A stretch of DNA of 64,000 nt from an uncultured bacterium (GCA_965233125.1 CBDDRQ010000030.1:16419-80418); one strand, 5' to 3'. Counted from the stretch's first letter, positions 8,427 through 42,381 are shown. The notes: generated by a model not told the origin, from the letters alone. Translations and numbers: made by a program.

Positions 8427-8858
8427 TCAGGCTTCCCTGTTCTTCGACCGATAGAGGTCCTGGAAGCGGCCGTTATCAACGGCCTCTTTTGCTGGCCTCG
8501 TGAGCTGGCCGTACTCCCCCAGGAATTCAGGATAACGGTCTATCAGGTCGGGCCTTTCGCGGGCGATCACGTATAAACCCAACGCTCGAACCGACTTCGG
8601 ATAGCCCAGGATCGAGAACATGGCCGTCTCTTTGGCGGCTTCTTCCATAAGGGCTTCGTCGCTCGGCGTCGGCCCGCGACTGAACATGGCGTGATGCTTC
8701 ATTCGTCTCGCCAGGACGTATGCCAGGAGCTGGTGCTCATTCGCTGCCCTATTCATCTGTCGCTCGCCCTCGTACATGACCTCGATCGTGCGGATGACTT
8801 CCTCTGCGAGCACCTTGCCGTTAAGGATGCCCCGTAGATTGTTCCAAAGCGCGCCCAT
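8427..8858 (-). CDS. hypothetical protein (143 aa)
   Basis: ATG at 8858 is preceded by a strong AAGGAGGA. Divergent from the 8983 cassette. No motif recognised. Confidence 0.55.
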   Translation of the reverse strand: MGALWNNLRGILNGKVLAEEVIRTIEVMYEGERQMNRAANEHQLLAYVLARRMKHHAMFSRGPTPSDEALMEEAAKETAMFSILGYPKSVRALGLYVIARERPDLIDRYPEFLGEYGQLTRPAKEAVDNGRFQDLYRSKNREA

Positions 8859-8982: not shown

Positions 8983-10125
8983 GTGGGGGCTCGCAGCGAA
9001 CTCTTCTGGAATGCCCCGTATCGACTTGAGTCGACAAGAGCCATTGATCCGCTTGGGTTCGATGCGCTCAGGGAAGCAATGTCCAACGTACTTGCGCCAT
9101 TTCTCACCGGCGCCACGCAGCACGCCGAGCATTACATCGCGGTAATCGTAGGTCTCCGTTGGGCAAAGCAGCAGGCCGCCTTGCCCGTTGACAAAGAAAT
9201 CTGGACACGCTTTGCGCGGTTCGAGAGAGGACTAAAGCAGTTCTGGCATCTCGTGCCGAGCGCGCGGCCGGCACGCAGCCGGTACTTGGGGAAGCGGGAA
9301 ATCGCGAAGATATGCGCCGGCGACAGGCCGAACATCCATGCGCAAATCCTGGTGGACCAACGCGGTGTCGGTTTGCTCGGCAACTACATCGAATCGCTTC
9401 GCGCTATTGGTCTGGTCGGCGCGGGACAGATCGTGGTCGATGACGCTGCCGTTACCCACCTGCTGGGTGATCCGCGCTTCGAGTGGAATGGAGTCAACCC
9501 GGCGAGCTGGGAAGCCTTGCGGAAGGTCTTCGCCGCAGTCGATCAGCGCTCGGCGTGGCCTCGGCTGGGCCGCCGGCTTTTCGATGCAAACGGCCTCACC
9601 GCGCTGAATGACGAGCGCCTGCGCATGAACAGCGCTGCCCGCACGCTCGTGGCTCACCTCGGCTTGAGCTGGCATCAGCTTGCAGCCAGCCGATTCCTGC
9701 TCGAGCCTCAAAGACGAATCGCAAAGGCAACTCGCCCAACGGCAGACCTCGAGGACGGCCTCCGCGAGCTATTCACTCGGTTGCTCAATGGCGAGACCCC
9801 GAAGCCGTCGAGGGCCATGGTTCGTCGGCTCTCGGGCTGGGCACAGCAGATCATTGACCTTGACGTCCTCGGTACCGTCTGGGCTGCCGAGCCCGCGCTC
9901 GCGAAGGCCCTTCGCCGTCAGATTGACGCGGTTGGGAATGGCCGCGTATCCGCGCATAGCGTGCTCAATTGGCATTTCGAGGTAATGAGTGCCCGCGGGA
10001 CTGAGCGATGGATACGGGACGTGGGAGAACGATCGTCACTGAAATTGACGTCGCAACGCAACGACCCCAACTACCGGCTCACGAACTTCCGGACGCTCCT
10101 CCAGGAGACGAAATGGCGCGGGTGA
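8983..10125 (+). CDS. hypothetical protein (380 aa), first gene of the unknown/PLD/helicase cassette
   Basis: Long ORF with sensible composition. GTG start. Its stop overlaps the PLD gene start region by 13 nt. I recognise no catalytic motif. Confidence 0.6.
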   Translation: MGARSELFWNAPYRLESTRAIDPLGFDALREAMSNVLAPFLTGATQHAEHYIAVIVGLRWAKQQAALPVDKEIWTRFARFERGLKQFWHLVPSARPARSRYLGKREIAKICAGDRPNIHAQILVDQRGVGLLGNYIESLRAIGLVGAGQIVVDDAAVTHLLGDPRFEWNGVNPASWEALRKVFAAVDQRSAWPRLGRRLFDANGLTALNDERLRMNSAARTLVAHLGLSWHQLAASRFLLEPQRRIAKATRPTADLEDGLRELFTRLLNGETPKPSRAMVRRLSGWAQQIIDLDVLGTVWAAEPALAKALRRQIDAVGNGRVSAHSVLNWHFEVMSARGTERWIRDVGERSSLKLTSQRNDPNYRLTNFRTLLQETKWRG

Positions 10126-11912
10126 AGTTGCACTTTGAGCGCATAGCGACGGTCGAGCGACTGCTAAATGCTGTCAAGCAGATAGGGCTGGATCAACTGG
10201 AGGCGATCCTCGCCTGCACCTTCACCTTTAACCAGAACTATTTTGCGCAGTTGCTCGATGCAATAGCGGACTGCCATCCGGAAGGCGCGGACCTATTGCG
10301 CTCGATACCTGTGGACGTTGTGTGCGACCACCGACATTACTCTGGCCACTCGGGTAACTACAACGTGACCCTATGGCCCGGGAACGGTTTGTTTCATCCT
10401 AAGCTCTTTATGCTGATGTTTTCGCAATCCGTTGTCTGGATCGAGGGTTCGCTCAACCTGACCAGGGCCGGATACGCGGTAAACCAGGAGCTGGTTACTT
10501 TCCACGAGAGCGATGGCGGCCTTCCGGGAGGTGTCCGAGACCTGATTCGACAGATCGCCAAGGTGCCCGTCCAAGCCGCAAAGGCCATCGAGAGCGGCAC
10601 GTGGAATAGCAGAACGAGCGCGCATAACCGCAGCGTCAATAGCCTGAATACCCGCCTCCTCGAAGGCTTCCTTGAACGAACGAGAAAAGCACAGAGCATC
10701 TACCTTGTCTCACCCTACTTCGATCGACGCGAGCAAGCCGGGCCCTCAATCGAGGCGAGCGCCCTTCGCGCCCTGGTTGGCAAATACCCGAGAGCGCGGT
10801 TCCACATCTACCTCCCGGAGATCCTTCGCAAGGATGGCAGTCTCGCCCTGCAGGGTAATAGAGGACTGTTCGCGAGCATCTTTGGCAAGAACGCACCGCT
10901 TGATACCGTATCGTTCTGCGGCGTGCCGTCGGCCGAGAGACCCTTGCATGCAAAATTGATTGCAGCCCGATACGGGAAGGGCGGTGCCCGCGCATCGATA
11001 CTGGCCGGCTCACCCAACTTGACGGAAAGCGCATTATTGAAAAAAGGAGCGCGCGCGAACGTCGAGCTCGCGAGGGAACTGGTATTACGCTGGAAAGATG
11101 TGGAGCGGCTGCTACGTCCTCTCGGACGTGGATTCAAGAAGCTTTCGCAGTGCAGGTTCGAGGCTCCGGAAAGCACGATTGCTGATGGCTGGCATGCCGT
11201 AAGTTCGGCGACTTTTCATCCCCTAAGCGGCACGCTTGTTCTCCAATGGAGACGCCCAGATTACGCACGACGGACACGTGTGCTGTACGTCGGCAAGCAG
11301 CTCCAAGTCTCCGAAACAGGCACCGTCCGACGATTTGGCATCAGAGACGAAGAACTCAGGCTGAGGTGCGTATCGGCCGGAGATGCTACTCGCTGGAGCT
11401 GGTGCCCGATAATGATCCCCTACAAGTCCCGCCTTGCGCTTGCCGAGATGCCAGATCAGGGTGAGCCGGCACCGGAGTGGTGGCTGGCCCAGCTTGGGGC
11501 GCTCTCGTTCTCGAATGCGGGTGATCGTCGCAGTCGATATGAGTCGATTCGCGAGACGGCTGATACTTCTACGTTTGCGCTTGGGCAAAAGGTCCGCGAA
11601 CTCGCGTCGCGGATGCGGTACGCGGCGGGAATGCTCCAGGCGGATTCAATTTCCGAGCATCGACTTAGGGCCCACTTAGGCCTGCTGAAGAAGATCTTCG
11701 ACTCGCATGACCCTTCGACGGCTGGGAGCCCAGAAGAGCAAGCCTGGAGGACCTGGGTTCGCCTAGAGGTGGCGCAGGCTGTGGCGACCGCCGCGCGCGG
11801 AACTCGGCTGGGCGAGATCCGACGACTCAAGGCTGAGCTCAAGAAGCGGCTGTCATCTGCCCCTGTGTCAGCGGCCCTGGGCCACTGGAACACTCTAACG
11901 GAGTCTCTCTGA
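10113..11912 (+). CDS. phospholipase D-like (tandem HKD) nuclease-family protein
   Basis: Two HxK(x)4D(x)6GSxN motifs: HPKLFMLMFSQSVVWIEGSLNLT and HAKLIAARYGKGGARASILAGSPNLT. ATG at 10113 is preceded by AGGAGA. Confidence 0.8.
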   Translation: MARVKLHFERIATVERLLNAVKQIGLDQLEAILACTFTFNQNYFAQLLDAIADCHPEGADLLRSIPVDVVCDHRHYSGHSGNYNVTLWPGNGLFHPKLFMLMFSQSVVWIEGSLNLTRAGYAVNQELVTFHESDGGLPGGVRDLIRQIAKVPVQAAKAIESGTWNSRTSAHNRSVNSLNTRLLEGFLERTRKAQSIYLVSPYFDRREQAGPSIEASALRALVGKYPRARFHIYLPEILRKDGSLALQGNRGLFASIFGKNAPLDTVSFCGVPSAERPLHAKLIAARYGKGGARASILAGSPNLTESALLKKGARANVELARELVLRWKDVERLLRPLGRGFKKLSQCRFEAPESTIADGWHAVSSATFHPLSGTLVLQWRRPDYARRTRVLYVGKQLQVSETGTVRRFGIRDEELRLRCVSAGDATRWSWCPIMIPYKSRLALAEMPDQGEPAPEWWLAQLGALSFSNAGDRRSRYESIRETADTSTFALGQKVRELASRMRYAAGMLQADSISEHRLRAHLGLLKKIFDSHDPSTAGSPEEQAWRTWVRLEVAQAVATAARGTRLGEIRRLKAELKKRLSSAPVSAALGHWNTLTESL

Positions 11913-11956
11913 CTCAGAATCCTCTGCGCGAAATAGATCTCGCACGTCTATCGGCT

Positions 11957-14053
11957 TTGTACCCTGCCGAACAGCGGCATGAGCTGCGCGATCAGAACGC
12001 ACGTGCGCGTGGGCTTTGGGTCCGCCTGCAACGCCATGATGTTCCGGGTGTCATCCTGGGTGACGAAGTCGGCAAAGGGAAGACCTACATTGCGCTCGCC
12101 TTGGCTTTTGCCACGTTAGCGACAAGCCCCGCTGGCCGTGTCGTCGTTCTCACGCACAGCCGTTCGATGGCGAAGACGTGGGCGTCGCGCTGGAACCAGC
12201 AAGTACGGACGATGGTCCACGGGCGGTGGCGCGAACGCTTTGACAATGAGTGGAAAGCCCGCGTTATCAGCCAATACGACGACTTCTTCCACGCTCTCGA
12301 AGAAACCAAGCGCAGTCCAGCCATTTTCTTTGCCTCGTACGACACGCTGAAGCGGTTTCACAGCCCGGAAGGGCGACGTCGCCACTTGCTCGGGGCCCTG
12401 CGCTTCGCATACCGGGCTCTTGGAATGCGGTTGACCCGAGATGATCGGCTTCGCCTAGTCAAGTCCGTGATTTCCGAGGGCGGCACGATGCCAAGGCGCG
12501 CATTGGACGTCCCGGCGCCCGCGGCCATTCGTATGCTGAAGACGGCCCTAGACCCCGAGCAGCGGGACTGGCGGCCGCGCTCCTACCAGCTCATCGAAGA
12601 CTTTCTCCAAAGTCAGGCAGCGCTCGAACTGCAGATCCGCCCTAAGCTCGATCTGCTGATCGTCGACGAAGCGCACAAGCTGGAAGGAGATCGCCGCGGA
12701 AGTGTCATTACCCACCTTCTAAGCGGCAAGTTCCGAAAAGGTGTATGGGTTACAGCCACCCCCTTTGCTCTCACCCTGGCAGAGCTTCGCCGCCGCTTGC
12801 GTCAATTCGAGCACGCCGCATCGGCTGCCAGCGGCTATCGCACGCTCATAGAAGAGCTTCCGCTGAAAGAGTACGAGGCGGCGGTCTCGGAGCGGACCGA
12901 GTTTCCGCAGATCAGGCTGCTTGAACGCGAGCTAAGGCGGTGCATGGTGCGATCGACCTGGAACAATCGTAACGAGCGTCGAATTATCGCTTGGACCGCT
13001 CAGGCGACTGGAGCCGCCTTGCTGCCTAGCATGGCGCTCGAACGGGTCATCTCCAATGTGCTCACCTCCGGCGACCGAACCCATGTGGCCAGCGTACGGG
13101 AGACTCTGTGCTCCAGTTGGGCGGCGACGCTCGAATCACTACGCAACGGAGCATTGGCCAGCTTCAAGCGGGAACCGTGGATAGCACGGCTGGAAAGGGC
13201 GCTTACGGGGACCACCGGCGTCGACCCCAAGCTGCGGGCGGCGGTCGATAGGCTGGCACACCTCGCTCTTTCCGGGGAAAAAACCGTCGTATTCACCCAT
13301 CGGACCGAAACTTCAGCGATGCTGGTAAAAGCACTTCATGAGCATTCAGCGCTGCGGGACCTCGCCATTCGGCTTCAAAGATCCGGCAAACGCTGGCGGG
13401 AAAGAGCCGAGCACGTTCGCCGGGTGCTATCGATACCTTCTCTTCGGCATGCACAGACGGTCGCGAAGATTATGGCTTCATCGCTCGACGCTCCGGATGC
13501 GATGCCTGCAGCTATGCGCAGGTGGTGGCACAGACACGAACGGATACTTGAGAGTCAGCGTCAATCCACTGAGCACGCGACGGTCTTTGACTTTCTGGAA
13601 TCGATTGCTGGAAAGTCGCGACGGCTGCCGCTAGTGGCTCGCTACGACGGGCAGGTCTCCGGCGGTGATGAGACTCAAGCCGACACCGTAAGCAACGATC
13701 AGAAATTCAACCTGCCGAGCGTGCCCCTTATTCTGGTGGCATCCCGCAAGGGGCAAGAAGGTATCGATCTTCACCATTATTGCCGGCGCGTCGTGCTCTA
13801 CGATCTGCCGTGGAATCCCGCGCTCATCGAGCAGCGCATCGGGCGTGTTCACCGGCTTGGCGGGATGCGCAGCCGTAAGCGCCCGGTCGAGGTCGTCTAC
13901 TGCTATCAGCAGGGCAGTTACGAGCACAGCATAGCTCAGCGAGTAAAACGTCGTTGCGAGATGATGCACGCGCTGTTGGGCGCGGGCACGTGGCTCGATC
14001 AGGACCGGGAAGTTGAGAATCTCCAACGTTATCGCATGACGTTCCCGCCATGA
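11957..14053 (+). CDS. SNF2/DEAH-type superfamily 2 helicase
   Basis: Motif I GDEVGKGKTYIAL, motif II LLIVDEAHKL, C-terminal lobe QEGIDLHHYCRRVVLYDLPWNPALIEQRIGRVHRLGG. The start is TTG in the ORF track and is uncertain. Confidence 0.8.
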   Translation: MYPAEQRHELRDQNARARGLWVRLQRHDVPGVILGDEVGKGKTYIALALAFATLATSPAGRVVVLTHSRSMAKTWASRWNQQVRTMVHGRWRERFDNEWKARVISQYDDFFHALEETKRSPAIFFASYDTLKRFHSPEGRRRHLLGALRFAYRALGMRLTRDDRLRLVKSVISEGGTMPRRALDVPAPAAIRMLKTALDPEQRDWRPRSYQLIEDFLQSQAALELQIRPKLDLLIVDEAHKLEGDRRGSVITHLLSGKFRKGVWVTATPFALTLAELRRRLRQFEHAASAASGYRTLIEELPLKEYEAAVSERTEFPQIRLLERELRRCMVRSTWNNRNERRIIAWTAQATGAALLPSMALERVISNVLTSGDRTHVASVRETLCSSWAATLESLRNGALASFKREPWIARLERALTGTTGVDPKLRAAVDRLAHLALSGEKTVVFTHRTETSAMLVKALHEHSALRDLAIRLQRSGKRWRERAEHVRRVLSIPSLRHAQTVAKIMASSLDAPDAMPAAMRRWWHRHERILESQRQSTEHATVFDFLESIAGKSRRLPLVARYDGQVSGGDETQADTVSNDQKFNLPSVPLILVASRKGQEGIDLHHYCRRVVLYDLPWNPALIEQRIGRVHRLGGMRSRKRPVEVVYCYQQGSYEHSIAQRVKRRCEMMHALLGAGTWLDQDREVENLQRYRMTFPP

Positions 14054-14263
14054 CGCCAAGAACGGTGGGTGCTCGACCAGCCAGCTTCAGGGTGCTCGCT
14101 TGACGTGAAGCACTAGGTCATACGGCCAACGGCTGGATCGCCAAGGATTCCAGGCATGCTGGAAATCCACTTCCGAATGGAACGCCCGCCTACGCAGGGC
14201 AAGGCGCTCCATGATCTGGATGGGATTGAGCCCGGGATCTCCCACTGATGTTCCCAGTTCTCT

Positions 14264-15046
14264 TTACTCCTTCGGTAAAGCGTGTAGCAGGCCGCGCTCG
14301 ATTAGGCCGCGAAAATGCGCGACGATACTGCCGGCGAGTGCGCGGTCGCGAACGAGCAATCCCAGCTCTATGTTCCGCTCGAGCGCAGCCTCAGTGAGGT
14401 TCGCGGAAGTAACGAAAACGGCTTCCTCGTCAGCAACGACAGCCTTGGCGTGCAATACGCCAGCGGGAGCATCGGGCTCGAGTGCACGGGGATCGTAGAA
14501 GACTCGCGGCCGAGCCCCCCCCGGCCACTCTGTGCTCCAAAGACGGTCGGCGAACCGACGGATAAGCTGCTCAGCGGTGGTTGTGTCACCCCGTTTGCGC
14601 TGAATATTGAGCAGCAGCGTCACTTGTAGTGCGTTTGTCGCCTCCATTCGTCGAGCAAGGACCTCAAACGCCCTTGGGCCGTCGAAGAATACATAGGTGC
14701 TTACCCACAGAGACCGCTCGGCCGAACCTAGTAGCTCCTCATAAACCCGTCGCGTGCCGCGCGCATGCAGGCCGGGCACTTCGGGTCCTGACCACACCAG
14801 ATCGGTCCGCGGCGCGTTGGCGTGAACCTTGTTCAAGCTGCGGAGCCAAGCCGCGGCAGCGGGTCCGGCCAGCCCCAGGCGGTCACAGTGCGCGAGCGCA
14901 TTGGCGATCGGCTCCATCTCGCCCGCGCCACCCAGCACCGAGCGCAGTGCGACCACAGATGGAGATCCTTGCAGTAGCCCCGACTCAAGCGCGCAGGCGA
15001 GTCGCTCGCGCAGATGCGGCGATACGCTTGCGAGGGCTTCCATCAT
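14264..15046 (-). CDS. drmC: DISARM DrmC (PLD-domain protein)
   Basis: Single HKD motif HAKAVVADEEAVFVTSANLTEAA. There is a 4-nt overlap with drmB. It is the last gene of the drmD-MI-A-B-C array. Confidence 0.8.
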   Translation of the reverse strand: MMEALASVSPHLRERLACALESGLLQGSPSVVALRSVLGGAGEMEPIANALAHCDRLGLAGPAAAAWLRSLNKVHANAPRTDLVWSGPEVPGLHARGTRRVYEELLGSAERSLWVSTYVFFDGPRAFEVLARRMEATNALQVTLLLNIQRKRGDTTTAEQLIRRFADRLWSTEWPGGARPRVFYDPRALEPDAPAGVLHAKAVVADEEAVFVTSANLTEAALERNIELGLLVRDRALAGSIVAHFRGLIERGLLHALPKE

Positions 15047-16836
15047 GCCAGGCCCTCGAAGAATGCCGCGCCGCGTTCGCCGAGTACGGGAACGACGAGC
15101 GCGCGGTCGAGGTAGTCGTTACGCATCTCACAGCTCGTTTCTGCAACCAAGGCGCAGCCGTGGCACGCCGCGCCGTGCAGCCATCGGTGCTCCATGCTCT
15201 TGCCGGGTGTGTGTCGCGCGCAGATGGGGTCGTTGGAGCAAAGTGTGGCTTGCCGCAGCGCCTCCGCCAGGTGGTCCTCGAAGTGACGCGCTTGCTGGAC
15301 GAGGCCTCCAAGCGTTCCTTCGGCGTCAGGACTCCCGGTGTACAGCAGGATCCCGAAATGGTCGGCCTGCGTATCGGCATAAATACGCTCCCGGATCGAG
15401 CTCGCCGGATAGCCGCAGCGCATCGCGAGCGACTGGAGCAAGAGGTGCGAGAGCGTGTGGAGCAGAACGTATGGTCCGCCAGGAAACGCGCGATTGCTCT
15501 TTCGCTCCGTCGCCCAGCGGGCGTGTCCCGTCGCGAGGCCATTGAGTCGTTGCACGACTTCCGGGCGGTCGAGCCAGCTTCGCACAGCGCCGGCGCGCAG
15601 CTGCACGAACACGCCCTCACCCCGATTCTCAACTGCGGGAAACCAGGCTGGCTCAATCGCGAGCGACGCGCGCTCCACGTCGCTCTCATATTCGCCATGG
15701 ATGTCGGGCATTACGGCCTCGAGCCGCGTGAAACCCACTAGCGCGAGCACCTCGCGCAGTCGATGCAGCTGAATAACCGCTTCGACGCCGGCAGTGCGGT
15801 TCGAGCGGCGCCAGGCAGCATCGGGTAAACGTCGAGCGTGAAAATTCGGATCGATGGGTACGTCGTCGCCAAAGCCCTCGGCGGCGGCGATAAGTGCGTC
15901 GAGTTCGACCTGCTTTACCGGTCGGTCCTGCGCGCCACCGCGTTTGCGGTCGCGGACGGCCTGGAGGACTTCGTCGTCGGGAAACGGGGCGAGACGATCC
16001 GCAATTTTTGGTTTCTTTTTGAGAAAAGCCAGCCCTGCGGCGTCATCCACGATCTGGAGGTCGTCCCACAATTCGGCGACCACAGTCCCAACGGCGCTCC
16101 CCCGATCCGGGAGGGAGAGCACGCTTACGACCTGCGGAAAGTAGGCGTTCGACGCCGTGCGGATAAGAAGGCGGCTCGGCTGGATGCAGTCCTCGGAGGT
16201 ATTTCGGCCGAGCCACGGGCGAGCGCCGCGGCAGGTGCCAAGCAAGTTCATCTCAAGCTGAGTTGCCTCGTAGAGACTGCGCTGCTTTCCGCACTCGCAG
16301 CGCACCACGAGATCGGCGAGGTCGCCGCTCGTGCCACGCTCGTCGAGCCAGAGCTGTCTCCGGCAGCCGTCCTCAATCCCGTGAACGTAGCGCTGCCAAT
16401 CGAGGTCGTCCACGTGCCCTCTCGTACACGCGCGGACGAAGCGGGTCGCGACGACGGCGCGGCCATCAAAGCGCCCCCTATCATCCAGCGCCTTACGATG
16501 AACCAGGCGGCGGGAACGCCGGCGATCCTCGGCTCCCGACTCGTCCTGCACTACGAACCACTCGGGGAAGCGCCATGCACCGATGCCCCGCGCCGGCGCG
16601 CGGGGGTCGTTCGACTCCGGAGGAGGCGCATAGAGCCGCGGATTCGGTACTGCCGTCATGATTCCGAGCTTCTGCGACAGCCGCGGCTCCACGATTTCCT
16701 CGAGGTCCGCTGGCTTGGGCCAGGTGTCAAGACCGCCGACAATGGCGGAGTGACGGGGGAGGTCAATCAAAGCACCGGGGCCGTACGTAGTGATGACCTG
16801 GCCGCGCCGGACTTGCCCATGGGCCTTGCGGCTCAT
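15043..16836 (-). CDS. drmB: DISARM DrmB (DUF1998 protein)
   Basis: C-terminal Cys cluster CSNDPICARH...HGAACHGCALVAETSCEMRNDYLDR is typical of DUF1998. Translationally coupled to drmA and drmC (ATGA overlaps). Confidence 0.85.
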   Translation of the reverse strand: MSRKAHGQVRRGQVITTYGPGALIDLPRHSAIVGGLDTWPKPADLEEIVEPRLSQKLGIMTAVPNPRLYAPPPESNDPRAPARGIGAWRFPEWFVVQDESGAEDRRRSRRLVHRKALDDRGRFDGRAVVATRFVRACTRGHVDDLDWQRYVHGIEDGCRRQLWLDERGTSGDLADLVVRCECGKQRSLYEATQLEMNLLGTCRGARPWLGRNTSEDCIQPSRLLIRTASNAYFPQVVSVLSLPDRGSAVGTVVAELWDDLQIVDDAAGLAFLKKKPKIADRLAPFPDDEVLQAVRDRKRGGAQDRPVKQVELDALIAAAEGFGDDVPIDPNFHARRLPDAAWRRSNRTAGVEAVIQLHRLREVLALVGFTRLEAVMPDIHGEYESDVERASLAIEPAWFPAVENRGEGVFVQLRAGAVRSWLDRPEVVQRLNGLATGHARWATERKSNRAFPGGPYVLLHTLSHLLLQSLAMRCGYPASSIRERIYADTQADHFGILLYTGSPDAEGTLGGLVQQARHFEDHLAEALRQATLCSNDPICARHTPGKSMEHRWLHGAACHGCALVAETSCEMRNDYLDRALVVPVLGERGAAFFEGLA

Positions 16837-19800
16837 GCTCGATCCTCTACATCCACTCCGCTTAGATCCTTGAGAAAGAGATTCACCTCCGGCTCGACGT
16901 CACGCAGCGAACGATTCGCCCGGAATTTGCGGTGGTGTTCCGACTCAAACTCCCTGTCGAGCATCTCGCGCAGTAGCGGGCGGGGCTGGTCGAGCTCGTA
17001 CTTCTGGTATTGCACGGCGACTCCCGCGCGTCGATAGTCTTCGAAGACTGTGCGCCATGCATCGAGCAGATCGACGACGCGATTCTGTACGCTGCGTACG
17101 CGCTCCTCGCGCTCCTCGTCGCTTGCGAAGGGCTGCTGTCGCACGCGCTCAAGGAGTGCTTGCAAGACCCGCCGTTCGAGCTCCGTCCGGACGGCGGCGA
17201 TTTGCTCTACACCTCGGGGCGGCGCCAGCTCGGATCGCAGATGCCGCGACAGTCCGACCAGCGCGCCGGCGAAGCCCCGGTCGAGCGCCCGAGCAGAGAA
17301 CGGCGTGACACTCCCGATTTCCACGGAACGATAGAAGGTCTCGTGATAGTGACGGAAGCGCTCGTAATGCGAGCGGTCGCGAGGCTTGTGAATGTTGAAG
17401 AGGGTCACCACCAGCCCAGGGCGTGCGTCGTCGCGGCCCACGCGGCTCGTAGCCTGGATGTACTCCGCATGCGTCTTAGGCTGGCCGAAGACGACCATAA
17501 GCCCGAGCCTCGGAATGTCCAGGCCTACGGAGATCATGTTCGTCGCGATGGCGCAGTCCACCCGCTGATCGATCCTGTGAAATGGTGTCTCCAGCCGCCG
17601 CCTCGCCTCGGCCACTTTGTCGGTCGAGACCCGCGAGGTCAGCTCCACCACCTCGGAGAACGTCCGGCGATCCTGAAAAAGGCCGGGCTTCTCGTCGATG
17701 CGGCGGCGGCTGCCGTAGGCCTTGAGCGTGTTCTGGACCTCTTCTTCCAGGATCCGCCGCGCACCGCCGAGCTCGCGCAGCGCGTTGAAATAGCCGAGCA
17801 CGGTCATGTAAGGGTCCGCGGGATTGGCTTCGTTCTTGTGCCCTCCAAGGTCGCGATAGGCGCGTTCCGCGGCGCCCATCAGTGCGAGCCAGGCCCGCCG
17901 CATTACGACCTTCGGATTGCGCCCCTGCGCAGCGACGCCCAGGTAGAGCCGGGCCGGTATTTCGCCCGGGGGCACCGTATGGGCGAAGAACGAGTCGCGC
18001 CGGTCAGGACCGGGCGGAGGAAAAACCTGCGTGATCCCCCGCGCGAAGAGCGCCTGGATCTGATCCTGCGCGCGCCGCACGGTGGCGGTGGACGCGACGA
18101 TCTTCGGCTTGACCGGGCGCCCATCCAGCTCGCGCACGCACAGCGCCTCGACTGCTGCCTCGTAGAGGCCGACCATCGTGCCCAGCGGGCCGGAGATGAG
18201 GTGCAGTTCGTCCTGGATCACGAGGTCGGGGGGCGGCAGTGGCGCCGTGAGGCGCGTGCCGCGTCCCGGCTCAGCGGCGCCGTAGAACCCGGCGGCGTCG
18301 TAGCGGTCCGCTCCTCCTAGCAGCGCTCCCGACTGTCCAATCCAAGGCAACGACGCAAACTTGTCCACGGTTGCGATGAGGAAGGCCGGCAAGCGCCGAT
18401 AAAGGGGCTCATCGACAGCGACGATCGGTAGCGCCCGGTCACGCGTAAAGTCGCACTCGAAGTTCGCGCATACGATGCGCAGCTCTCGAGGGGTATCGTC
18501 ATTCGGGACGAGCGCGAAGGAATCGCCGCCGAAACGCGTGCCGCACCACGGGCAGTTCTCCAGCGGAATAGGCGACGGCTTGCCTCTCGAGTCCGCCTTG
18601 AACTGTCGCACCTTGGTACGCGCGGAATCGGAACGTCCATCGCCCTTGCGACCCAGGATGTTGGGTGTGGCTGCCTTGCCAACCCACAGACCGATCTCGA
18701 ACGGCCATGTCCCATAGCGCTCGGGATTCCTTTCGCGCTCCAGCTCGAGTGCGCAGACGAGGCCGGCAGCACGTGCGAGCTGATCGAGGGTTAGGAGGCG
18801 CAGCGTGTAGCGCATGATCACGCTCACGCCCGCCGCTGCGCGTCCTTCATCGCCCGGATGACGGAGCCGCCGTAGCACCATCGCAAACGCCGCCAACCCC
18901 AAATACGCCTCGGTCTTGCCGCCGCCCGTCGGGAAGAAGAGGAGATCCACGGTGTCCCGGTCCGGCGCCTGAGGATCGGCGAGGCCGGGCAGGTTCAACA
19001 GCAGGAAGGCCAGCTGGAAAGCGCGCCAGCGCGGCGCGTTAATTCCGAGGCGTTTCTTCAAGGCCCGCGCGACAGCGCGATTCGCGACGCGGAAGGCGTC
19101 GAGCGCGTCAGCGTCCGCGGAGAGCTTGGCGATCCCGCGCTCGATCCGCCCTGCCGCCACGCCGGCCAGGCGCAGCAGTTCTCCCGCCGTATCGCGCCGC
19201 GCCCCCGTGAGGGATGCCAACCCGACCCGCTGCGTCTCCACCCATCTGCGGTAGGCCACGACGAGAGGCTGGAGCCGTGCCGTTACCGCTGCGCCGTCGG
19301 CAAGCGCCCCGAGCGCGTCCATGGACAGCTCAACGTCAGGCACGTCGACCGTGGCCGTCTTCTCTACGTCGGCCTGCGGAACCCAGGCGGTGCGCAGTAG
19401 CCGGCAGGCACCGTCCACAATTTCCCAGTCGGCCGAAACCGCGTGCCCCGTCGCGAATTCCGGGGTGTCCGCATAATGAAGGTCGGCGACCTGCTCGTCC
19501 CATTCGGCTGCCAGTGCCCCGCGCAGATCAGGTCGCGGCACGAATGGATCCTCTCCGCGCACCTCGATCTCCGCCTGGAACACGTATGAGAGGTCCGGGT
19601 TGTCCTCGTTGGGCGTACGGTGGTTGACGAGAAAGATCGAGACCGAGCGCGTGCCAGTAGGGATGCGGTCGGCGAGCTCTTCCGCGACGACCTCGCGCTC
19701 GACCAAGTGAAGCTCGAGCCCATGCGAGTCCGGGACAGTGCACACCGCATCCTCTTGCGATCCGGTGAGCTTAAGCCTTACGGTCGTCTCTCGTGGCGTG

Positions 19801-20240
19801 CGCTGCCAGATCGAGAGCGGCTTACCGTCCTCGCCTGTGATCTCAGTAGGCGCGTAGTCGCCCCAGCGGACGGTCACCATCAGCTCGCGCGCCGCCTTCG
19901 CGACCAAGAAGCTTAGGCCCATCGACGATGGGAAATAGCCCTTCTTCGCTGACTTGCGCTCCTCGCTCGACTCCTCAGCAAGCCCAGCTGTTTCCGGAAC
20001 AACCTCGAAGTCGTCGTCCTCGTCAGCGTCGGCGCTCTTCTCAGCTGGCATGTCCGAGGGAATCAGGAAACCAGTCAGGTACCAGTTCGATGGACGCACC
20101 CAGCCTGGCAACCGCTCCGCCACAAAGGCGTGCCCCGCCCACGGACCGACAAGGTCGAGCCGAAGCGCTTCAATCAATCGCTCGCGGACCTCCAGGGAGG
20201 TGCCGGTTTTCTCGGGATCACCTCGGTTCATGGTCGTCAT
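16833..20240 (-). CDS. drmA: DISARM DrmA (large SF2 helicase)
   Basis: Walker A [14 protein letters not shown], DExH box [14 protein letters not shown], C-terminal lobe [31 protein letters not shown]. 1135 aa. Sits between the methylase and the DUF1998 gene. Confidence 0.85.
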   Translation of the reverse strand: [1135 protein letters not shown]

Positions 20241-23200
20241 AAGAAGAGATCATCTTTGTTGTCGATATCGCGCCTCGCGGATTGCACCGCCTTCTTGCGC
20301 CCTTTCTTTCCCACCGCGGCGCCGGCGCGCGCCTCTGCGCGCGCGCGCTCGGCGTTGAGCTCGAGCAACCGTGCGAGCACCTCAGCCTGCACGTCGTCCG
20401 ACCAACGGTAGCGATACGACACGCCCGGCTCATCTTGTGCGGCGCTACTGGACTCCTCTGCGTAGAAGTCGCTGCGTACCTGCACATCGGCCCAACCGTA
20501 CGCATTGAGCGCGGCTTGGTCGATTGCCGCGTGAAGCCCACGAAGCGCCTGCATCCTGGAGTCTCGCTCATTCGGATCATGGAATCGATTGTATGTTTTG
20601 GTGATTCCCTGGTTCGTGTCGTTCATCAGCTGTGTACGGTACTGGTCGTATGCCTCGCCTGCCGCCATGAGTGCTTCATTCGTTGACCACTCCAGGGGAA
20701 ATGGAAGTGTTTCAAAGCAATCTGACGCTGAATATCGCAGCGTGTCTCCCAGCGACGAAGTCAAGAGACGTGCCCATTCCTCATGCAGGCGGCTCTGTAG
20801 CAGGGCAAAGGCAGCGTAAGAATCGTAGAGAAAAACACAAAGTTCTTTGCTAAAGGTTCGATGCGATGGCTGAAAAGAAACAGCGATGTGCTTCGTTACC
20901 TGAGCCGTCACTAACACTCTGTCCATTCTCTTACGAGCCTCGAGAATTCCATGAGCCTGCCCAGCGAAGAGCCACCACCGCGCCTTTCGAGAACGGGCCG
21001 CTGCGCTATCGTCTCTAAGCCGCATCCTTTCGGGCCGCACTCTCTCTTCTACGATCTTGAGAAGGTCCGGCCACCTTTGCGCTTCCTCTAATGTCATGTC
21101 ACGGAAATTAATGACGTATCTCGACGAGGACTGATGGGGATGCGTATTCACATCGCTACCCCCGATATATGACTCCAGCGCCATGGCGTTCGATGCATCT
21201 GATCGCACAAGCTCGGCGTACTCTTCCTCGTTCACGACGAAACCTGCGCCGTGAGTCGTGACTCCAAATAGTGCAAGGCCAACATTGCTTGCAAGCCGTT
21301 GCGGGTCCACCTCGTCAGTTGCGGGCAAAAGCCTAGAGCTAATACCAGGAACGAGCTTCCCATCCAGTTTGCTGACAGTGGGGATCGCGTGAGCCAGAAG
21401 GTGGATGACGCAGAACGCTACACTTGCGGCCCCGGGCCATCTGGTACTTGTTGTGGCGCTGTAGATCGTGAAATCGCGCTGCAAAAGCCAACGTAGGCCG
21501 GTGGTGCGTGTATCCCCTTGGGCGATAGTTTTAGTGGCCACCAGTCCGAGGGTTCCCCGACCTCTAAGGATGGAGGCCGACCTTCTAAAGAAGTACGCAG
21601 ACAGGTCAGCGTTGCCGTTGGCCCCCTCGTACTGATTCAATAGCCAGTCGCGGTATTGCTCGCCTAATGCAGCCGAGATGCCAATTCCGCCGAGGAATGG
21701 TGGATTGCCCACAATGCAATCGAACCCTCCATTGTCCCGCTGGAACGCCTCGGTGAATTCAATCTCCCAGTGGAACGACGTGAGCGGTGGAGAAGCGTGT
21801 CGGCGATTTTCCAGCCAACTGCGAAAACCCTCGGCATCGCCGCTCATTACGGCGTTCGCGAACTCCAGGCGCTTCGCGTCCCGCTCCTTTAGGTTATCCG
21901 CTTGGAACCAGGCCGCCAACACCAAATCGCCGAGCAGGCGAACCTTGCTCAGCTCGGCTTGGGCCTCGTCCCAAAGGTCTCGCAGCTCCTGATCCGTGAC
22001 GGCCTCGCCCGCCTCCTGAATCCGCTGCCGAAGCGCCGTAACCTTGGCCAAGTGCTCGCGCGCCTTCATTGCCTCTAGGCCTGCCTGAAAGCGCGGAGCG
22101 TCGGCCTCCCAGTGGAACGCTTCGATTTGCCGCCGGGAGAGCCCCACCAACGAGTCGCCGTGACGGAGCGCATGGTCCACGAACGTAAGGGCGTGGTCCC
22201 TGGCCAGCGTCGCTAGCCAGAGCGACATCTTGGCGAGGTCTACGGCCACCGGATTGCGGTCCACGCCGTACAGGCAGCGCTGGACGACAAGCCGCCGGGC
22301 AAAGACGACTTCGTCCTCGTCGAGCGGGATTGCGGGCCGTGCATCGTGCGCTCGCCATGCCTCGACGAGGGCATCAGCCAAGTATCGGCATGCCTCGACG
22401 AGGAACGCGCCCGACCCCATCGCCGGATCGCAGACCTTGAGATCGAGGATTGCCTCCGGTCGCGGCGGCCTGCCGTCATCCTCGCGCAGGCGAGCCAAGA
22501 CCGGATCGAGGGTCGTACGAACGATTGGCTCGGTTAGCTCCCGCGGAGTGTAGTGAGAGCCTGAACGGCGGCGCTCCTCGCTCGGCTGCAGCACCATCGC
22601 GCCTCGAGGCACGAGGTCCGGCGTGGCCGCTTGGTCGATCACGGGCACCAGGGCTGCATGCAGATCCTCGAGCGTGGCCGCCGCCTCGACTGCCTTCTTA
22701 ACGGTGTCGGTGAGCTTGCGGTCGGCGTGGGTCTGTATCCACTTCGCGCGGTTCGCACCGGCTTCGGCGAGCAGCGCCTCGAGGTTCAGCACCGTCGGAG
22801 CGCCCTGCTTCTTTTGCGCTTTGACGGCCACCGAAGGACCTTTGGCGGTCTCCAGGCGGAAGCCCATCATCGTCTCGTAGACCGAGCCGATCTGCTCGAC
22901 ATCTAAAGCGCGGTATGAAATGCGCTCGCCGTCGAGCACAAGCAGCTTCTCGAGGGCGCGGTAGATCGTGCCGTCGGGCACGAGAGGTGGCTCGATCCCA
23001 TCGTGGACGTGGCGCGCGTTGCCAGTCGTGCGCCCTTCGAGGAAGGGAAAGCGATCAGGATCGAACAGTACTCCGTGGCGCGGCGGCAGGTGCATGCCCG
23101 TTGCATCGGCTCCGTCGTGGACCATGCGGAAGAGCGCCACGAGTTGCGCCCAGGCACCGAAGCGCTGATCCATCGTATCGGGGTACAGCGCGGCGTCCTC

Positions 23201-24220
23201 GCGTAGACGCTCATGAAGGCCGGCGAGGGAGTAATAGCGCAGAAAAGTCTCCTGCTCCGGAAGCATGTCTCGCTCCTCGGCGTAGAGCAGGAACACAAGA
23301 CGCAGGATCACGGTGAGTAGCGCGCGATACACCTCGTCGGGGTGCTCGGCGAGGACCTGCCGCAGCAGCTCTCCCTTCGATGCATCATGTGCCATCTGAA
23401 AACCGCGTAGCAGTTCGTAGAGCGCGTGCAGCACCTGCTCGGCGAGTTTTTCCGAGACCTCGTTCTGGAACTTGCGGCTGTCTGCAAGCAGCGCGGCGAG
23501 CCGCTGGTGGCGTGGCCGCGTAAGCAGGCTCTGCTCCGAGAGAAGGAGCCGCAGCGCACTTACGATTGGCCGCCCCGCGGTCTGAACCATGTCGGCCATG
23601 CGGAAGTCGAGCCAGCCCGAGGACTCGCCGCGCGGCGCCGATACGAGGCGGAGCGCACGGCCGTTTACGAGCAACCCGGCAGGCACACCCGTATGGCGCA
23701 GCAGGCGCTCCATGCTGGAGTGCGGCGAGAGGTAGAGTCGTCCGCCGCCACGACTCTCCTCGTCGAACCCCTCACCGGGGACCACGCGCACGAGGAGCTG
23801 CCAGGATGACGCTCCATTCGGGGGCTCGAGCTCTCGCACGGCGTAGTCGGGCCGCAGTGTCCCCCCCGCATCAGGGAGCGGCAGCTCGAGTTCCGAAGGA
23901 ATCGGGCATTCGGGCGTTCCGGCGTAGCCCTTCGGCGAGAAGCGCCAGCCAAGCACCGTGCTGGCGAAGGCACGGAAATCGGTGATGTGCGCATCGGCAT
24001 GCAGGTCGCTGCCGTAACGTGGCGATGGTTCGCGCACACGATTGGCGATGCCTTCGGCGTCGCCGGCGCATGCGAGCAGGCGCCGCTGCCCTTCGGCGTC
24101 GCGCTGGTCGAGGATGGCTCCTGCGCGCACCAGAGCAGGAGCCGAGACTACGAGGCCTGTGGGTCGGACGAAGCCGAGCCACTCGAGGTGAGAAAGGATC
24201 TGTGGGTCGAGCTTCGCCAC
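20237..24220 (-). CDS. drmMI: DISARM DrmMI (N6-adenine DNA methyltransferase, Eco57I/type IIG-like)
   Basis: SAM motif I VCDPAMGSGAFLVEA and catalytic motif IV IVGNPPFLGG. 1327 aa. GTG start 3 nt after the drmD stop. Confidence 0.85.
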   Translation of the reverse strand: MAKLDPQILSHLEWLGFVRPTGLVVSAPALVRAGAILDQRDAEGQRRLLACAGDAEGIANRVREPSPRYGSDLHADAHITDFRAFASTVLGWRFSPKGYAGTPECPIPSELELPLPDAGGTLRPDYAVRELEPPNGASSWQLLVRVVPGEGFDEESRGGGRLYLSPHSSMERLLRHTGVPAGLLVNGRALRLVSAPRGESSGWLDFRMADMVQTAGRPIVSALRLLLSEQSLLTRPRHQRLAALLADSRKFQNEVSEKLAEQVLHALYELLRGFQMAHDASKGELLRQVLAEHPDEVYRALLTVILRLVFLLYAEERDMLPEQETFLRYYSLAGLHERLREDAALYPDTMDQRFGAWAQLVALFRMVHDGADATGMHLPPRHGVLFDPDRFPFLEGRTTGNARHVHDGIEPPLVPDGTIYRALEKLLVLDGERISYRALDVEQIGSVYETMMGFRLETAKGPSVAVKAQKKQGAPTVLNLEALLAEAGANRAKWIQTHADRKLTDTVKKAVEAAATLEDLHAALVPVIDQAATPDLVPRGAMVLQPSEERRRSGSHYTPRELTEPIVRTTLDPVLARLREDDGRPPRPEAILDLKVCDPAMGSGAFLVEACRYLADALVEAWRAHDARPAIPLDEDEVVFARRLVVQRCLYGVDRNPVAVDLAKMSLWLATLARDHALTFVDHALRHGDSLVGLSRRQIEAFHWEADAPRFQAGLEAMKAREHLAKVTALRQRIQEAGEAVTDQELRDLWDEAQAELSKVRLLGDLVLAAWFQADNLKERDAKRLEFANAVMSGDAEGFRSWLENRRHASPPLTSFHWEIEFTEAFQRDNGGFDCIVGNPPFLGGIGISAALGEQYRDWLLNQYEGANGNADLSAYFFRRSASILRGRGTLGLVATKTIAQGDTRTTGLRWLLQRDFTIYSATTSTRWPGAASVAFCVIHLLAHAIPTVSKLDGKLVPGISSRLLPATDEVDPQRLASNVGLALFGVTTHGAGFVVNEEEYAELVRSDASNAMALESYIGGSDVNTHPHQSSSRYVINFRDMTLEEAQRWPDLLKIVEERVRPERMRLRDDSAAARSRKARWWLFAGQAHGILEARKRMDRVLVTAQVTKHIAVSFQPSHRTFSKELCVFLYDSYAAFALLQSRLHEEWARLLTSSLGDTLRYSASDCFETLPFPLEWSTNEALMAAGEAYDQYRTQLMNDTNQGITKTYNRFHDPNERDSRMQALRGLHAAIDQAALNAYGWADVQVRSDFYAEESSSAAQDEPGVSYRYRWSDDVQAEVLARLLELNAERARAEARAGAAVGKKGRKKAVQSARRDIDNKDDLFL

Positions 24221-24223
24221 GGC

Positions 24224-27200: not shown

Positions 27201-27526
27201 TTGGGGTCGGTCGCCGTAACGCAGTTCCAGCGGAGCGTGTGCAGGAAAGCCGCGAACCGACGAGGCGGGTCGAATCCCTTCGTGGCTAGGTCCTTCCAGC
27301 CTTCTTCCTCCACGATGCGACGATCAAGCTCGTACTCCCAGAACACGTCGAGGGCCCGGCCCTGGGCGTCGTCGTCCGCGCAAGCAAGTCGAACGAGCGA
27401 AGATTGGCCCGGCGCGCTCGGCTCCACAACCTCCTCCACAAGCCATCGGCGGGAGCGCAAATGAACCAGCTCCCCGATGCGCGGTGGACGGCTAGGCAAT
27501 GGACCTCTTGCGGGTACCGCGCTCAT
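24224..27526 (-). CDS. drmD: DISARM DrmD (SNF2-family helicase)
   Basis: IADDTGLGKTIEAG, LILDEAHHAAP, DLPWNPGRIEQRNGRIDR. 1100 aa. First gene of the class 1 order. Confidence 0.85.
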   Translation of the reverse strand: MSAVPARGPLPSRPPRIGELVHLRSRRWLVEEVVEPSAPGQSSLVRLACADDDAQGRALDVFWEYELDRRIVEEEGWKDLATKGFDPPRRFAAFLHTLRWNCVTATDPNLFQSPFRAGIKIDAYQMEPLRKALRLPRVALFIADDTGLGKTIEAGLIARELLLRRKAKTIVVATPASVLEQWKAELEERFGLVFEILDRAYVARMRRERGFGINPWRTHSRFLVSHNLLIDPAYADPLREWLGTLLPGSLLILDEAHHAAPASGGRYGIETKFTRAIHDLAGRFEHRLFLSATPHNGHSNSFSTLMEILDPYRFTRGVKLRPKALEEIMVRRLKEDIRAVQGGFPRRHIVRIPIDGLAADAPELALSRLLDEYRSAREERFAKTSKRAQATAGLLVVGLQQRLLSSIEAFARSLKVHRATVERHWEKGGPAAATEAGAESAALFTHAPDADDERASWSLEEVEAEETTEIEAITSAAESGSARDSTSEALWHREKVLLDRMQEIAERNRHLPDAKTRYLLDWIREHLCPGLPPFGQRPQGKPPAWLHRRVLIFTENREGTKRHLKQILEQAIEGTERAEERIEVIDGLTSSTRRKEIQRRFNTDPSKDPLRILLATDAAREGLNFQAHCADLFHFDLPWNPGRIEQRNGRIDRKLQPAPEVRCHYFVLPQRTEDRVLEVLIRKTETIKRELGSLSKVIDDDIERRLGQGIRHRDAERLANEIEAADLDAARKRVVEEELEANSERRAELEAQIERCRNLLDKSRSATGFDPASFRDALSCSLELLGAPPLAETTDVYGRPAYAFPSLDRRAGADPSWAATLDTLRTPRASNQKLAEWRREAPIRPVVFEDAGILTEDTVHLHLEQRVAQRLLARFRAQGFVHLDLSRACLAQTRDAIPRVILLGRLSLYGRGAERLHEELVPVTARWIEPGQRKGALEAYAREAEAKTLEMLERSLSETGGRAPSEVVQRKLLATAARDIADLLPSLEPRAAEWADAAVQKLGERGEREARELRETLERQRERVREQLEKYEKQDFRQLTLGFDEEEKRQLEADVRSWRGRLAQFDRDLADEPARLRSFYEVKARRIEPVGLVYLWPESN

Positions 27527-36804: not shown

Positions 36805-37200
36805 CCACAAGTCACTAAACGGCGCGGGCGCCCCAAGGCAGAGACCAAGGGGGCGAAGGAGGCTATTGCAGCGATCGAGCGCAGGATGGAAGAGAAGAAG
36901 CTCTCGCGCGCAGGGCTAGCGCTGGTCCTGCAGATGAATCCGTCGAGCGTGACACGAGCCCTTAGTCAAGGGGACTCACCAGGGTGGACGCCGTCGCTTA
37001 AGCGCATTTATGGCGTTGCAATAAAGGGGAAAGGCGCGGTCGCAAAGGCGCCGCGGGGCCGAGAAGAGGCAACCCTGCAACGCCTACTGGAGACGCCGCC
37101 TGCGGCTGCAGGCGCCGTGAGGGCGATCCTGAACGATGTCCAGAGGCTGGTAGAGGCGCTCTCCGTCCCGCAGCGAGCAGTGAAACAGAAGCGCCGCTAA
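36799..37200 (+). CDS. putative HTH DNA-binding regulator (133 aa)
   Basis: Segment LSRAGLALVLQMNPSSVTRALSQ resembles an XRE/Cro-type HTH. Basic N-terminus. Divergent from the NADAR gene. Confidence 0.45.
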   Translation: MQPQVTKRRGRPKAETKGAKEAIAAIERRMEEKKLSRAGLALVLQMNPSSVTRALSQGDSPGWTPSLKRIYGVAIKGKGAVAKAPRGREEATLQRLLETPPAAAGAVRAILNDVQRLVEALSVPQRAVKQKRR

Positions 37201-41250: not shown

Positions 41251-41256
41251 ACGAGG

Positions 41257-42378: not shown

Positions 42379-42381
42379 GGC

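Follow-up and report, generated by a model that had tools for sequence, protein, structure and literature searches.

Three consecutive plus-strand genes, here called A, B and C, lie within a stretch of DNA of 64,000 nucleotides from an uncultured bacterium (GCA_965233125.1 CBDDRQ010000030.1:16419-80418; below, the window). We think it probable that this trio constitutes an autonomous defence cassette which was acquired horizontally, belongs to the Azaca/PDC-M27 superfamily and acts as an A-B-C complex. Gene A encodes a predicted all-alpha protein, gene B a predicted two-lobed nuclease of the phospholipase D (PLD) superfamily, and gene C an SNF2-type ATPase/helicase of superfamily 2 (SF2); the coordinates of these and of all other features are given in Table 1. 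The points that speak for this reading are the synteny of the three genes, the invariance of their catalytic residues, the relatedness of the proteins at the profile level, the predicted fold of B and the defence-island context.

A conserved three-gene unit apart from DISARM

The three open reading frames (ORFs) are intact and were found where the initial annotation of this DNA, made from the sequence by a model, had placed them, and its view that they form one unit agrees with what is seen at both gene junctions. Gene B starts (ATG 10113) before A has ended (stop codon 10123-10125), with an overlap of 13 nt, as had been noticed for the start region of the PLD gene, and an overlap of 11-13 nt is kept in homologues, including those of Sulfurifustis and of metagenomic loci. 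The 44 nt that had been thought to separate B and C, on the other hand, are an effect of ORF calling: homologues of C have an ATGA or GTGA as start, overlapping the stop codon of B, and this 4-nt overlap is conserved. The window has CTGA at this place (11909-11912), with a GGAG 5 nt before the CTG, and the first canonical start of C is the TTG at 11957; the 16 codons of 11909-11957 still encode the conserved N-terminus of the protein (TQ..L.EIDLAR). From the starts of the homologues together with these conserved codons, the 4-nt overlap appears to be the ancestral arrangement, and gene C of the window either makes use of rare CTG initiation or has shifted to the TTG after a recent start-codon mutation. 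By their layout A, B and C appear to be arranged as a translationally coupled operon. Divergent from gene A there is an ORF of 143 aa (8427-8858, minus strand) which has no Pfam or PADLOC match and is not kept beside the trio in the other loci examined.

On the minus strand, positions 14264-27526 hold a complete class 1 DISARM operon in the order drmD-drmMI-drmA-drmB-drmC. The trio had been described as a separate, oppositely oriented operon that ends 210 nt from drmC, and this is indeed the distance between the two convergent stop codons. The spacer is the border of two independent operons; a simple scan found no terminator-like hairpin in it, although scans for sigma-70 promoters and intrinsic terminators are uninformative in DNA of such high G+C content.

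But does the trio belong functionally to its neighbour? We searched 43 loci from genomes and metagenomes by tblastn with A, B and C of the window and with the five Drm proteins. Within the window-type family, every one of the 24 loci that continue beyond A has B directly after it, and every one of the 19 that reach further has C after B. Among the hosts are Sulfurifustis (Gammaproteobacteria), Paraburkholderia (Betaproteobacteria), Methylocystis (Alphaproteobacteria), Myxococcales, Verrucomicrobia and a metagenome-assembled genome (MAG) of Clostridia, besides metagenomes, so that the trio is spread over at least six bacterial lineages. In these other loci no homologue of DrmA, DrmB, DrmC or DrmMI was found by tblastn in up to 10 kb of sequence flanking the trio, and the matches of DrmD were only to the helicase core of C or to unrelated SNF2 genes. 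All five annotated loci have CBASS, BREX-like, DndB-like, dynamin-like or UvrD/PD-(D/E)XK genes as neighbours: CBASS with DUF499/DUF1156 genes and an integrase, a dynamin-like pair with DndB-like genes, UvrD/PD-(D/E)XK pairs, NERD and WYL genes, or BrxB with a PglX-like methylase. A methyltransferase is part of the conserved unit in none of the loci, which is in keeping with the earlier remark that the trio has no methylase. A search of plasmids, phages and viral contigs yielded no match to the cassette.

As the A-B-C order is kept across loci that have no DISARM genes in their flanks, we conclude that the trio is an autonomous cassette which lands in defence islands, and that its adjacency to DISARM is a matter of island co-location specific to this window. 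Of the two possibilities raised by the initial annotation, the synteny of the three genes apart from DISARM thus supports an independent restriction-like module, with a PLD nuclease and an SNF2 ATPase as effectors, and the absence of DrmA, DrmB, DrmC and DrmMI from the flanks elsewhere argues against an accessory that uses the DISARM methylation mark.

The trio sits within an integrated island. From ~6 kb to ~53 kb the G+C content of the window is 58-66%, as compared to 70-73% (about 72%) outside this stretch, at the window ends, and we regard the stretch as an integrated island because it also holds a tyrosine integrase and a D5_N-type primase. No tRNA gene is present in the 64-kb window.

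Two of the loci surveyed, both from long-read MAGs (Verrucomicrobiae and a deltaproteobacterium), contain the cassette broken into several ORFs (L004, 9944-15037; L005, 9995-14900), as a result of either assembly frameshifts or pseudogenisation. In Paraburkholderia caribensis (CP013102; L007, 667-15031) the genes before the trio encode a YqaJ-like recombinase, DUF932 and WYL proteins and a dynamin-like pair, an arrangement reminiscent of the LESGI-1 'GI-Hotspot 9' of Pseudomonas, for which Azaca and dynamins have been reported as cargo (PMC12629846).

Gene A

The public gene call for A (P0001) comprises 348 aa, as it begins at Met33 and misses the first 32 codons. These codons (window positions 8983-9078) encode W9, N10 and D22-G25, residues that are invariant throughout the family, and for this reason we favour the GTG at 8983 as the start of A and consider the database protein to be N-terminally truncated. 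The most conserved motif of the N-terminal region, DPLGFDALREAMSNVLAPFLTGAT, which is made up of invariant and near-invariant columns, is common also to the PDC-M27A-like clades in a cross-clade alignment.

Searches of A against Pfam, NCBIfam and the sequences of the PDB gave no match, and neither DUF6361 nor another Pfam domain was found in A, in its 43 relatives (DUF6361 up to E 1) or in the 65 more distant proteins that form an outer ring around the family. The AlphaFold2 model of A (predicted local distance difference test score, pLDDT, 91.2; predicted template modelling score, pTM, 0.88) consists of 19 helices. The Foldseek search that the initial annotation had proposed for this protein was run with the model and matched nothing in the PDB or BFVD, the best E-values being 0.27 and 0.17.

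The A family is rare: 5.8 billion proteins contain 61 of its clusters at 90% identity. When its profile was run against 1.84 billion representatives, 233 proteins were retrieved at E ≤ 0.001. In PADLOC, A of the window matches PDC-M27A only (E 0.021); this model is matched by 15 of the 44 members of the family (best E 3e-5), and the ZacA model by neither A of the window nor any of its 43 relatives. Homology between the A family and the 65 outer-ring relatives, which came from this profile search, extends over the full length (hhalign 99.9%, E 4e-37). PDC-M27A is matched by 36 of these proteins (best 9e-26) and ZacA, weakly, by five (best 6e-4), and they fall into three clusters, namely a PDC-M27A-like clade of 400-456 aa, proteins of 440-460 aa that have no PADLOC match, and a small clade of ~380 aa. 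Like A, the outer-ring proteins precede a ZacB-like protein and an SNF2 helicase in A-B-C cassettes. Aligned with the PDC-M27A-like clade alone, the A family still gives 99.6% in hhalign (E 8e-25, 321 columns), and the motifs that are common to both (DPLGF...LT..T, FERxL, Q(R)xxGLxGxY and H..VM..R...PW) lie at both ends of the proteins. Taken together, these comparisons indicate that A is a conserved all-alpha protein and a full-length remote homologue of the PDC-M27A-like proteins, placed outside the clade which the model describes. That the first gene has no recognisable motif, as had been stated, therefore holds for Pfam but not more generally, since the A family is remotely homologous to PDC-M27A.

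Gene B

The start of B is the ATG at 10113 and not the upstream ATG at 10008, which makes it a protein of 599 and not of 634 aa, because its homologues align from there and the public gene call (P0323) has 599 aa as well. B contains two PLD half-sites (Table 1), whose H, K, G, S and N residues are invariant in 17 sequences in both halves of the protein, as are N124 and E126 in the first half and N316 and E318 in the second. The Asp of the classical HxK(x)4D motif is absent from B of the window and from all 17 relatives, none of which has an Asp at K+5. The two complete HKD motifs with which this protein had been credited hence have to be revised to motifs that appear to be of the HKN type and thus Tdp1-like. 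The suggestion that the protein could form a monomeric nuclease-type active site, by contrast, gains support from the conservation of both half-sites and from the structures that match its two-lobed model.

In the AlphaFold2 model of B (pLDDT 86.1) two PLD lobes are followed by a beta-rich domain (~residues 360-435) and a C-terminal helical domain. Its best Foldseek match is human Tdp1 (E 3e-7, probability 1.0), and further matches are PPK1, a Streptomyces PLD, the nuclease domain of the ATP-dependent restriction enzyme SauUSI (E 1.5e-4), NucT, NgoAVII, BfiI and Zucchini. A sequence search of the PDB with B found nothing. The Pfam model PLDc_2 is recorded for most homologues and reaches 22.6 bits in B of the window, which is below its threshold of 27. 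In PADLOC, B matches ZacB with 39.5 bits (E 7.9e-11) over model positions 106-357 of 586 (43%), a region that spans both half-sites, and PDC-M27B with 27.3 bits (E 3.4e-7) over model positions 104-219 of 635; the homologues of B score 28-50 bits with the ZacB model. A profile search with the B family retrieved 35 proteins, with no canonical ZacB among them. As modelled, B is a single-chain, two-lobed enzyme of the PLD superfamily, in which both HxK...GSxN half-sites are predicted to form one active site.

Gene C

The motifs GKGKT, DEAH and QRIGRVHRLGG had already been read in the helicase by the initial annotation, and all three prove to be invariant in 18 relatives (in motif I, residues G39, G41, K42 and T43). 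The same is true of motif III (TATPF), of motif V (QEGID) and of the SNF2-typical DLPWNP just upstream of motif VI. In Pfam, C exceeds the thresholds of Helicase_C, ResIII and DEAD and falls just short of that of SNF2-rel_dom; the solved structures closest to C in a sequence search of the PDB are RapA, Rad54 and INO80, that is, generic SNF2 remodellers only. By its sequence C is accordingly an SNF2-type SF2 ATPase with the NTPase and helicase motifs all conserved.

The best PADLOC match of C is PDC-M27C (78.5 bits, E 9e-23), mainly in the C-terminal lobe. ZacC is matched with E 5.7e-18 by residues 174-642 of C (469 residues, including the inter-lobe region), which correspond to model positions 564-907 of 1019, and DrmD with 3e-19 in the helicase C-lobe only; the PDC-M27C and DrmD models thus score similarly to ZacC. 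With its 698 or 714 aa, C is ~250-300 residues shorter than its relatives and lacks ~300 positions of the ZacC model. The three PDC-M27C models have 656, 892 and 1217 positions, and C is shorter than the latter two by ~200-520 residues; it is shorter by ~320 residues than the ZacC model and by ~265 residues than the helicase of a related cassette in Burkholderia multivorans (OZ244259), here called the L011-type cassette. With the latter helicase C is collinear over residues 28-460 and 582-676.

Relation to Azaca, PDC-M27 and other systems

Azaca (ZacABC), which was reportedly named in Millman et al. 2022, resembles the trio in its three genes and their order (unknown protein, PLD nuclease, SF2/SNF2 helicase) and in having no methylase. 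In the Azaca system BmAzaca, ZacA, ZacB and ZacC are all needed for DNA cleavage, the Walker A motif of ZacC and the active site of ZacB are required, and the complex prefers T4 DNA containing glucosyl-hydroxymethylcytosine (glucosyl-hmC); protection by Azaca against T4 is more than 10^6-fold, and anti-phage activity and ATP-dependent cleavage are known for BmAzaca and KpAzaca only (bioRxiv 10.1101/2025.07.10.664194). ZacA has been described as a DUF6361 protein (bioRxiv 10.1101/2025.07.10.664194), whereas A of the window and its 43 relatives have neither this domain nor a match to ZacA. In addition, the ZacC model has 1019 positions as compared to the 698-714 aa of C, and the scores are far too low for membership, as judged by the PADLOC models of Azaca.

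PDC-M27 is a candidate of PADLOC-DB v2 that derives from genes embedded in BREX, DISARM or restriction-modification (RM) loci (Payne et al., bioRxiv 10.1101/2024.01.29.577857), where it is listed as cassette CAS_00110, number 127 (bioRxiv 10.1101/2024.01.29.577857). It is a three-family cassette of the order A>>B>>C, and all three subunits of the trio are related to it at the profile level. Different from A with its 380 aa, however, the PDC-M27A model has 460 positions, and the matches of B and C are partial. The L011-type cassette, whose A belongs to the outer-ring clade of 440-460 aa, shares with the trio the gene order, a homologous A and a B with both HxK/GSxN half-sites, but its proteins are larger (A 447 aa, B 717 aa, C 963 aa), C having ~300 extra residues between the lobes. 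Its B matches ZacB (2.6e-11) and its C matches both PDC-M27C (4e-49) and ZacC (8e-30); its A has no match in PADLOC. Finally, the SauUSI-type restriction enzymes (type IV) and the 'PLD_Helicase' family of PADLOC likewise combine a PLD nuclease with an SF2 ATPase in the absence of a methylase, and cleavage by SauUSI is ATP-dependent. They are single chains, however, whereas the trio splits these functions over three polypeptides, and the model NF042964 scores 55 bits at a cut-off of 1100. No SRA-like or other modified-base reader is recognisable in the trio by sequence or by fold search.

By these comparisons all three subunits are related to those of PDC-M27, two of them clearly to those of Azaca and the third, A, perhaps as well. 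We file the trio outside both systems because A fails the models, B and C have low and partial scores, and C is short. It would accordingly represent a separate, unnamed clade of the Azaca/PDC-M27 superfamily, a divergent relative of both systems and a member of neither. Onto named systems the trio maps weakly, its best or near-best PADLOC matches being ZacB/ZacC and PDC-M27A/B/C with low scores and partial coverage. Its earlier designation as uncharacterised is correct in so far as it is too divergent for a callable member, but it does have relatives in ZacB and ZacC of Azaca and in PDC-M27A/B/C. The view that a PLD nuclease plus an SNF2 helicase represents the effector logic of restriction-like systems is supported for the trio.

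Proposed mechanism

How could such a cassette work? Using BmAzaca and the general enzymology of PLD and SNF2 proteins as a guide, we suggest that A, B and C would assemble into one complex, by analogy with BmAzaca, in which ATP hydrolysis by C, accompanied by translocation on or remodelling of double-stranded DNA, would license B. B in turn would cut foreign DNA via a phosphohistidine intermediate, and A may be an obligatory structural or specificity subunit. Since in none of the loci is the cassette accompanied by a methyltransferase, self is probably not told from non-self by a cognate methyl mark, and a modification- or cue-dependent recognition is more likely. The complex might thus discriminate modified or phage-specific DNA, in the manner of a type IV-like 'split SauUSI', or it might respond to an infection cue.

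Several points weigh against our interpretation of the trio as a defence cassette of this superfamily. The Zac and PDC-M27 models are matched only weakly and in part, A lacks both DUF6361 and a match to ZacA, and the link between A and ZacA consists of a few weak hidden Markov model matches of outer-ring relatives. PDC-M27 is itself a candidate by guilt of embedding, and for the window clade we infer anti-phage function by analogy, as we do the formation of a complex, the substrate and the role of A. The template modelling scores (TM-scores) of B with Tdp1 are modest (0.34 and 0.45), so that it is the two-lobed PLD core alone that is supported by this match. Moreover, C has no canonical start at the ancestral position (CTG instead of ATG), and its full-length expression in this strain is not assured.

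Alternative explanations

Could the trio nevertheless be an accessory of DISARM, a second helicase-nuclease effector which reads the DrmMI mark or cooperates with DrmABC? DISARM also joins a PLD-family protein, DrmC, and an SNF2 helicase, DrmD, in a restriction-like system, the trio ends only 210 nt from drmC in the same island, relatives in PDC-M27 were first noticed embedded in BREX, DISARM or RM loci, and C is similar to DrmD models in the helicase core. To DrmD of the window itself, however, the similarity is at the level of motifs, and the 80 bits obtained with the NCBIfam DrmD model compare with a cut-off of 610. B does not match the DrmC models, and DrmC has 260 aa with one region matching PLD models (residues 198-235, ZacB model) where B has 599 aa and two half-sites. 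The DISARM of the window is already complete with a DrmD and a DrmC of its own, the trio is a separate, convergent operon, and in the other loci no DrmA, DrmB, DrmC or DrmMI lies within 10 kb of it, the neighbours that were read belonging to other systems. We therefore regard a role as DISARM accessory as very unlikely. Still less credible, and in our opinion close to excluded, is that the trio is a fragment of a restriction module of the Dpd (7-deazaguanine DNA modification) type, akin to DpdJ/DpdK, with which the initial annotation had compared it. B and C do match DpdK and DpdE weakly, but the 19.7 bits of B with DpdK (cut-off 100) stem from ~30 residues around one HxK motif, which reduces the analogy to a shared PLD motif, C reaches 67.7 bits with DpdE at a cut-off of 500, and genes of the dpdA, dpdB or dpdC type are not found beside the trio where its neighbours could be read.

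The resemblance of B to Tdp1, its best structural match and an enzyme with HKN-type motifs as well, would also fit a repair or processing module, in which a Tdp1-like phosphodiesterase and an SNF2 translocase clear protein-DNA adducts or blocked ends. Yet monomeric two-lobed PLD structures are scarce in the PDB, which probably explains this match; the TM-scores are modest, and PLD restriction nucleases and the ZacB/ZacC models are matched too. Furthermore, the family occurs rarely and sporadically across phyla (61 clusters in 5.8 billion proteins), and the cassette is always found in mobile or defence contexts, all of which makes a repair function highly improbable. More deserving of attention, though in our estimate still unlikely, is a mode of action of the Hachiman type, as a sensor of genome integrity or of an infection cue. 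Here the helicase would survey the DNA and, once triggered, set free a PLD nuclease that degrades host and phage DNA indiscriminately, leading to abortive infection with no recognition of modification. The trio shares with Hachiman, AbpAB and related systems, which cut with degenerate motifs, the combination of a nuclease with an SF2 helicase and no methylase, and sequence and fold searches with A, B and C revealed no resemblance to a known modified-base reader. BmAzaca, however, the closest validated relative, cuts T4 DNA preferentially and not all DNA, and it needs the ATP site of its helicase, which Hachiman and AbpAB do not.

Implications

A wider proposal would be that the trio, PDC-M27, the L011-type cassette and Azaca all branch from a single broad and mostly unannotated superfamily of 'split' ATP-dependent PLD restriction systems, in which A, with a predicted fold that has no counterpart among the solved (PDB) and predicted viral (BFVD) structures searched, is the specificity or sensor module that chooses the DNA to be attacked, for instance hypermodified phage DNA. 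We put this forward as speculation that is unlikely to hold. If it were true, the compact clade of the window, with its A of 380 aa and a helicase devoid of the long insertion, would have a target range unlike that of Azaca. Less likely still, as a further step of this proposal, the trio would act in functional synergy with the adjacent DISARM.

What the comparisons do provide is that three or four A-B-C clades are now linked by profile-level homology of all three subunits. The current PADLOC and Pfam models cover only a part of the superfamily, which makes a case for wider detection models. The window clade is the most compact version found (A 380, B 599 and C ~700 aa), and the models of A and B are confident. 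As a minimal system it is thus well suited to structural and biochemical studies of questions that concern Azaca, namely the need for the A subunit, the recognition target and the licensing of the PLD nuclease by ATP. The idea that the trio borrows the methylation mark of DISARM is removed.

Other features of the window

Table 1. Positions of the trio, its motifs and further genes, counted from the first letter of the window
Feature	Position	Strand	Remarks
Gene A	8983-10125	+	GTG start; 380 aa; intact ORF; predicted all-alpha protein
Most conserved N-terminal motif of A	9046-9117	+	DPLGFDALREAMSNVLAPFLTGAT; invariant/near-invariant columns
Gene B	10113-11912	+	ATG start; 599 aa; predicted two-lobed PLD-superfamily nuclease
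First PLD half-site of B	10395-10457	+	H95-x-K97...G112-S-x-N115; HPKLFML...GSLN
Second PLD half-site of B	10947-11018	+	H279-x-K281...G299-S-x-N302; HAKLIAA...GSPN
Gene C	11909 or 11957-14053	+	SNF2-type SF2 ATPase/helicase; 714 or 698 aa
Motif I (Walker A) of C	12071-12085	+	GKGKT; G39, G41, K42, T43 invariant, 18 sequences
Motif II (Walker B) of C	12665-12676	+	DEAH; invariant, 18 sequences
Motif VI of C	13832-13864	+	QRIGRVHRLGG; invariant, 18 sequences
Convergent spacer, C stop to drmC stop	14054-14263		210 nt
drmC	within 14264-27526	-	best PADLOC E 1.8e-76
drmB	within 14264-27526	-	best PADLOC E 1.7e-80
drmA	within 14264-27526	-	best PADLOC E 1.6e-275
drmMI	within 14264-27526	-	best PADLOC E 0
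drmD	within 14264-27526	-	best PADLOC E 0
CARF6-like protein	38252-39625	-	PADLOC 8e-101
ORC/CDC6-like STAND-type ATPase	39319-41250	-	
PRTase-like protein	41257-42378	-	PADLOC PRTase_III-A 1e-15
Protein with weak HAD-like stretch	42382-44307	-	
D5_N-type primase	45833-48985	-	within low-GC stretch
Tyrosine integrase	51332-52582	-	within low-GC stretch; low-GC island ends nearby

Immediately upstream of drmD lies an ORF of 622 aa (27591-29459, minus strand) that may be co-transcribed with DISARM. It has no PADLOC match, and a C-terminal HicA-like stretch scores 20.5 bits against a gathering score of 27. The gene at 29759-30784 (minus strand) encodes a full-length ARPP-1 domain (ARG and Rhodanese-Phosphatase-superfamily-associated protein; Pfam E 4e-88), again with no PADLOC match. 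A run of genes at 37197-44307, also on the minus strand, is possibly a further unnamed defence module. Within it the CARF6-like and ORC/CDC6-like ORFs overlap by ~300 nt as listed in Table 1, and one of the two starts is therefore probably wrong.

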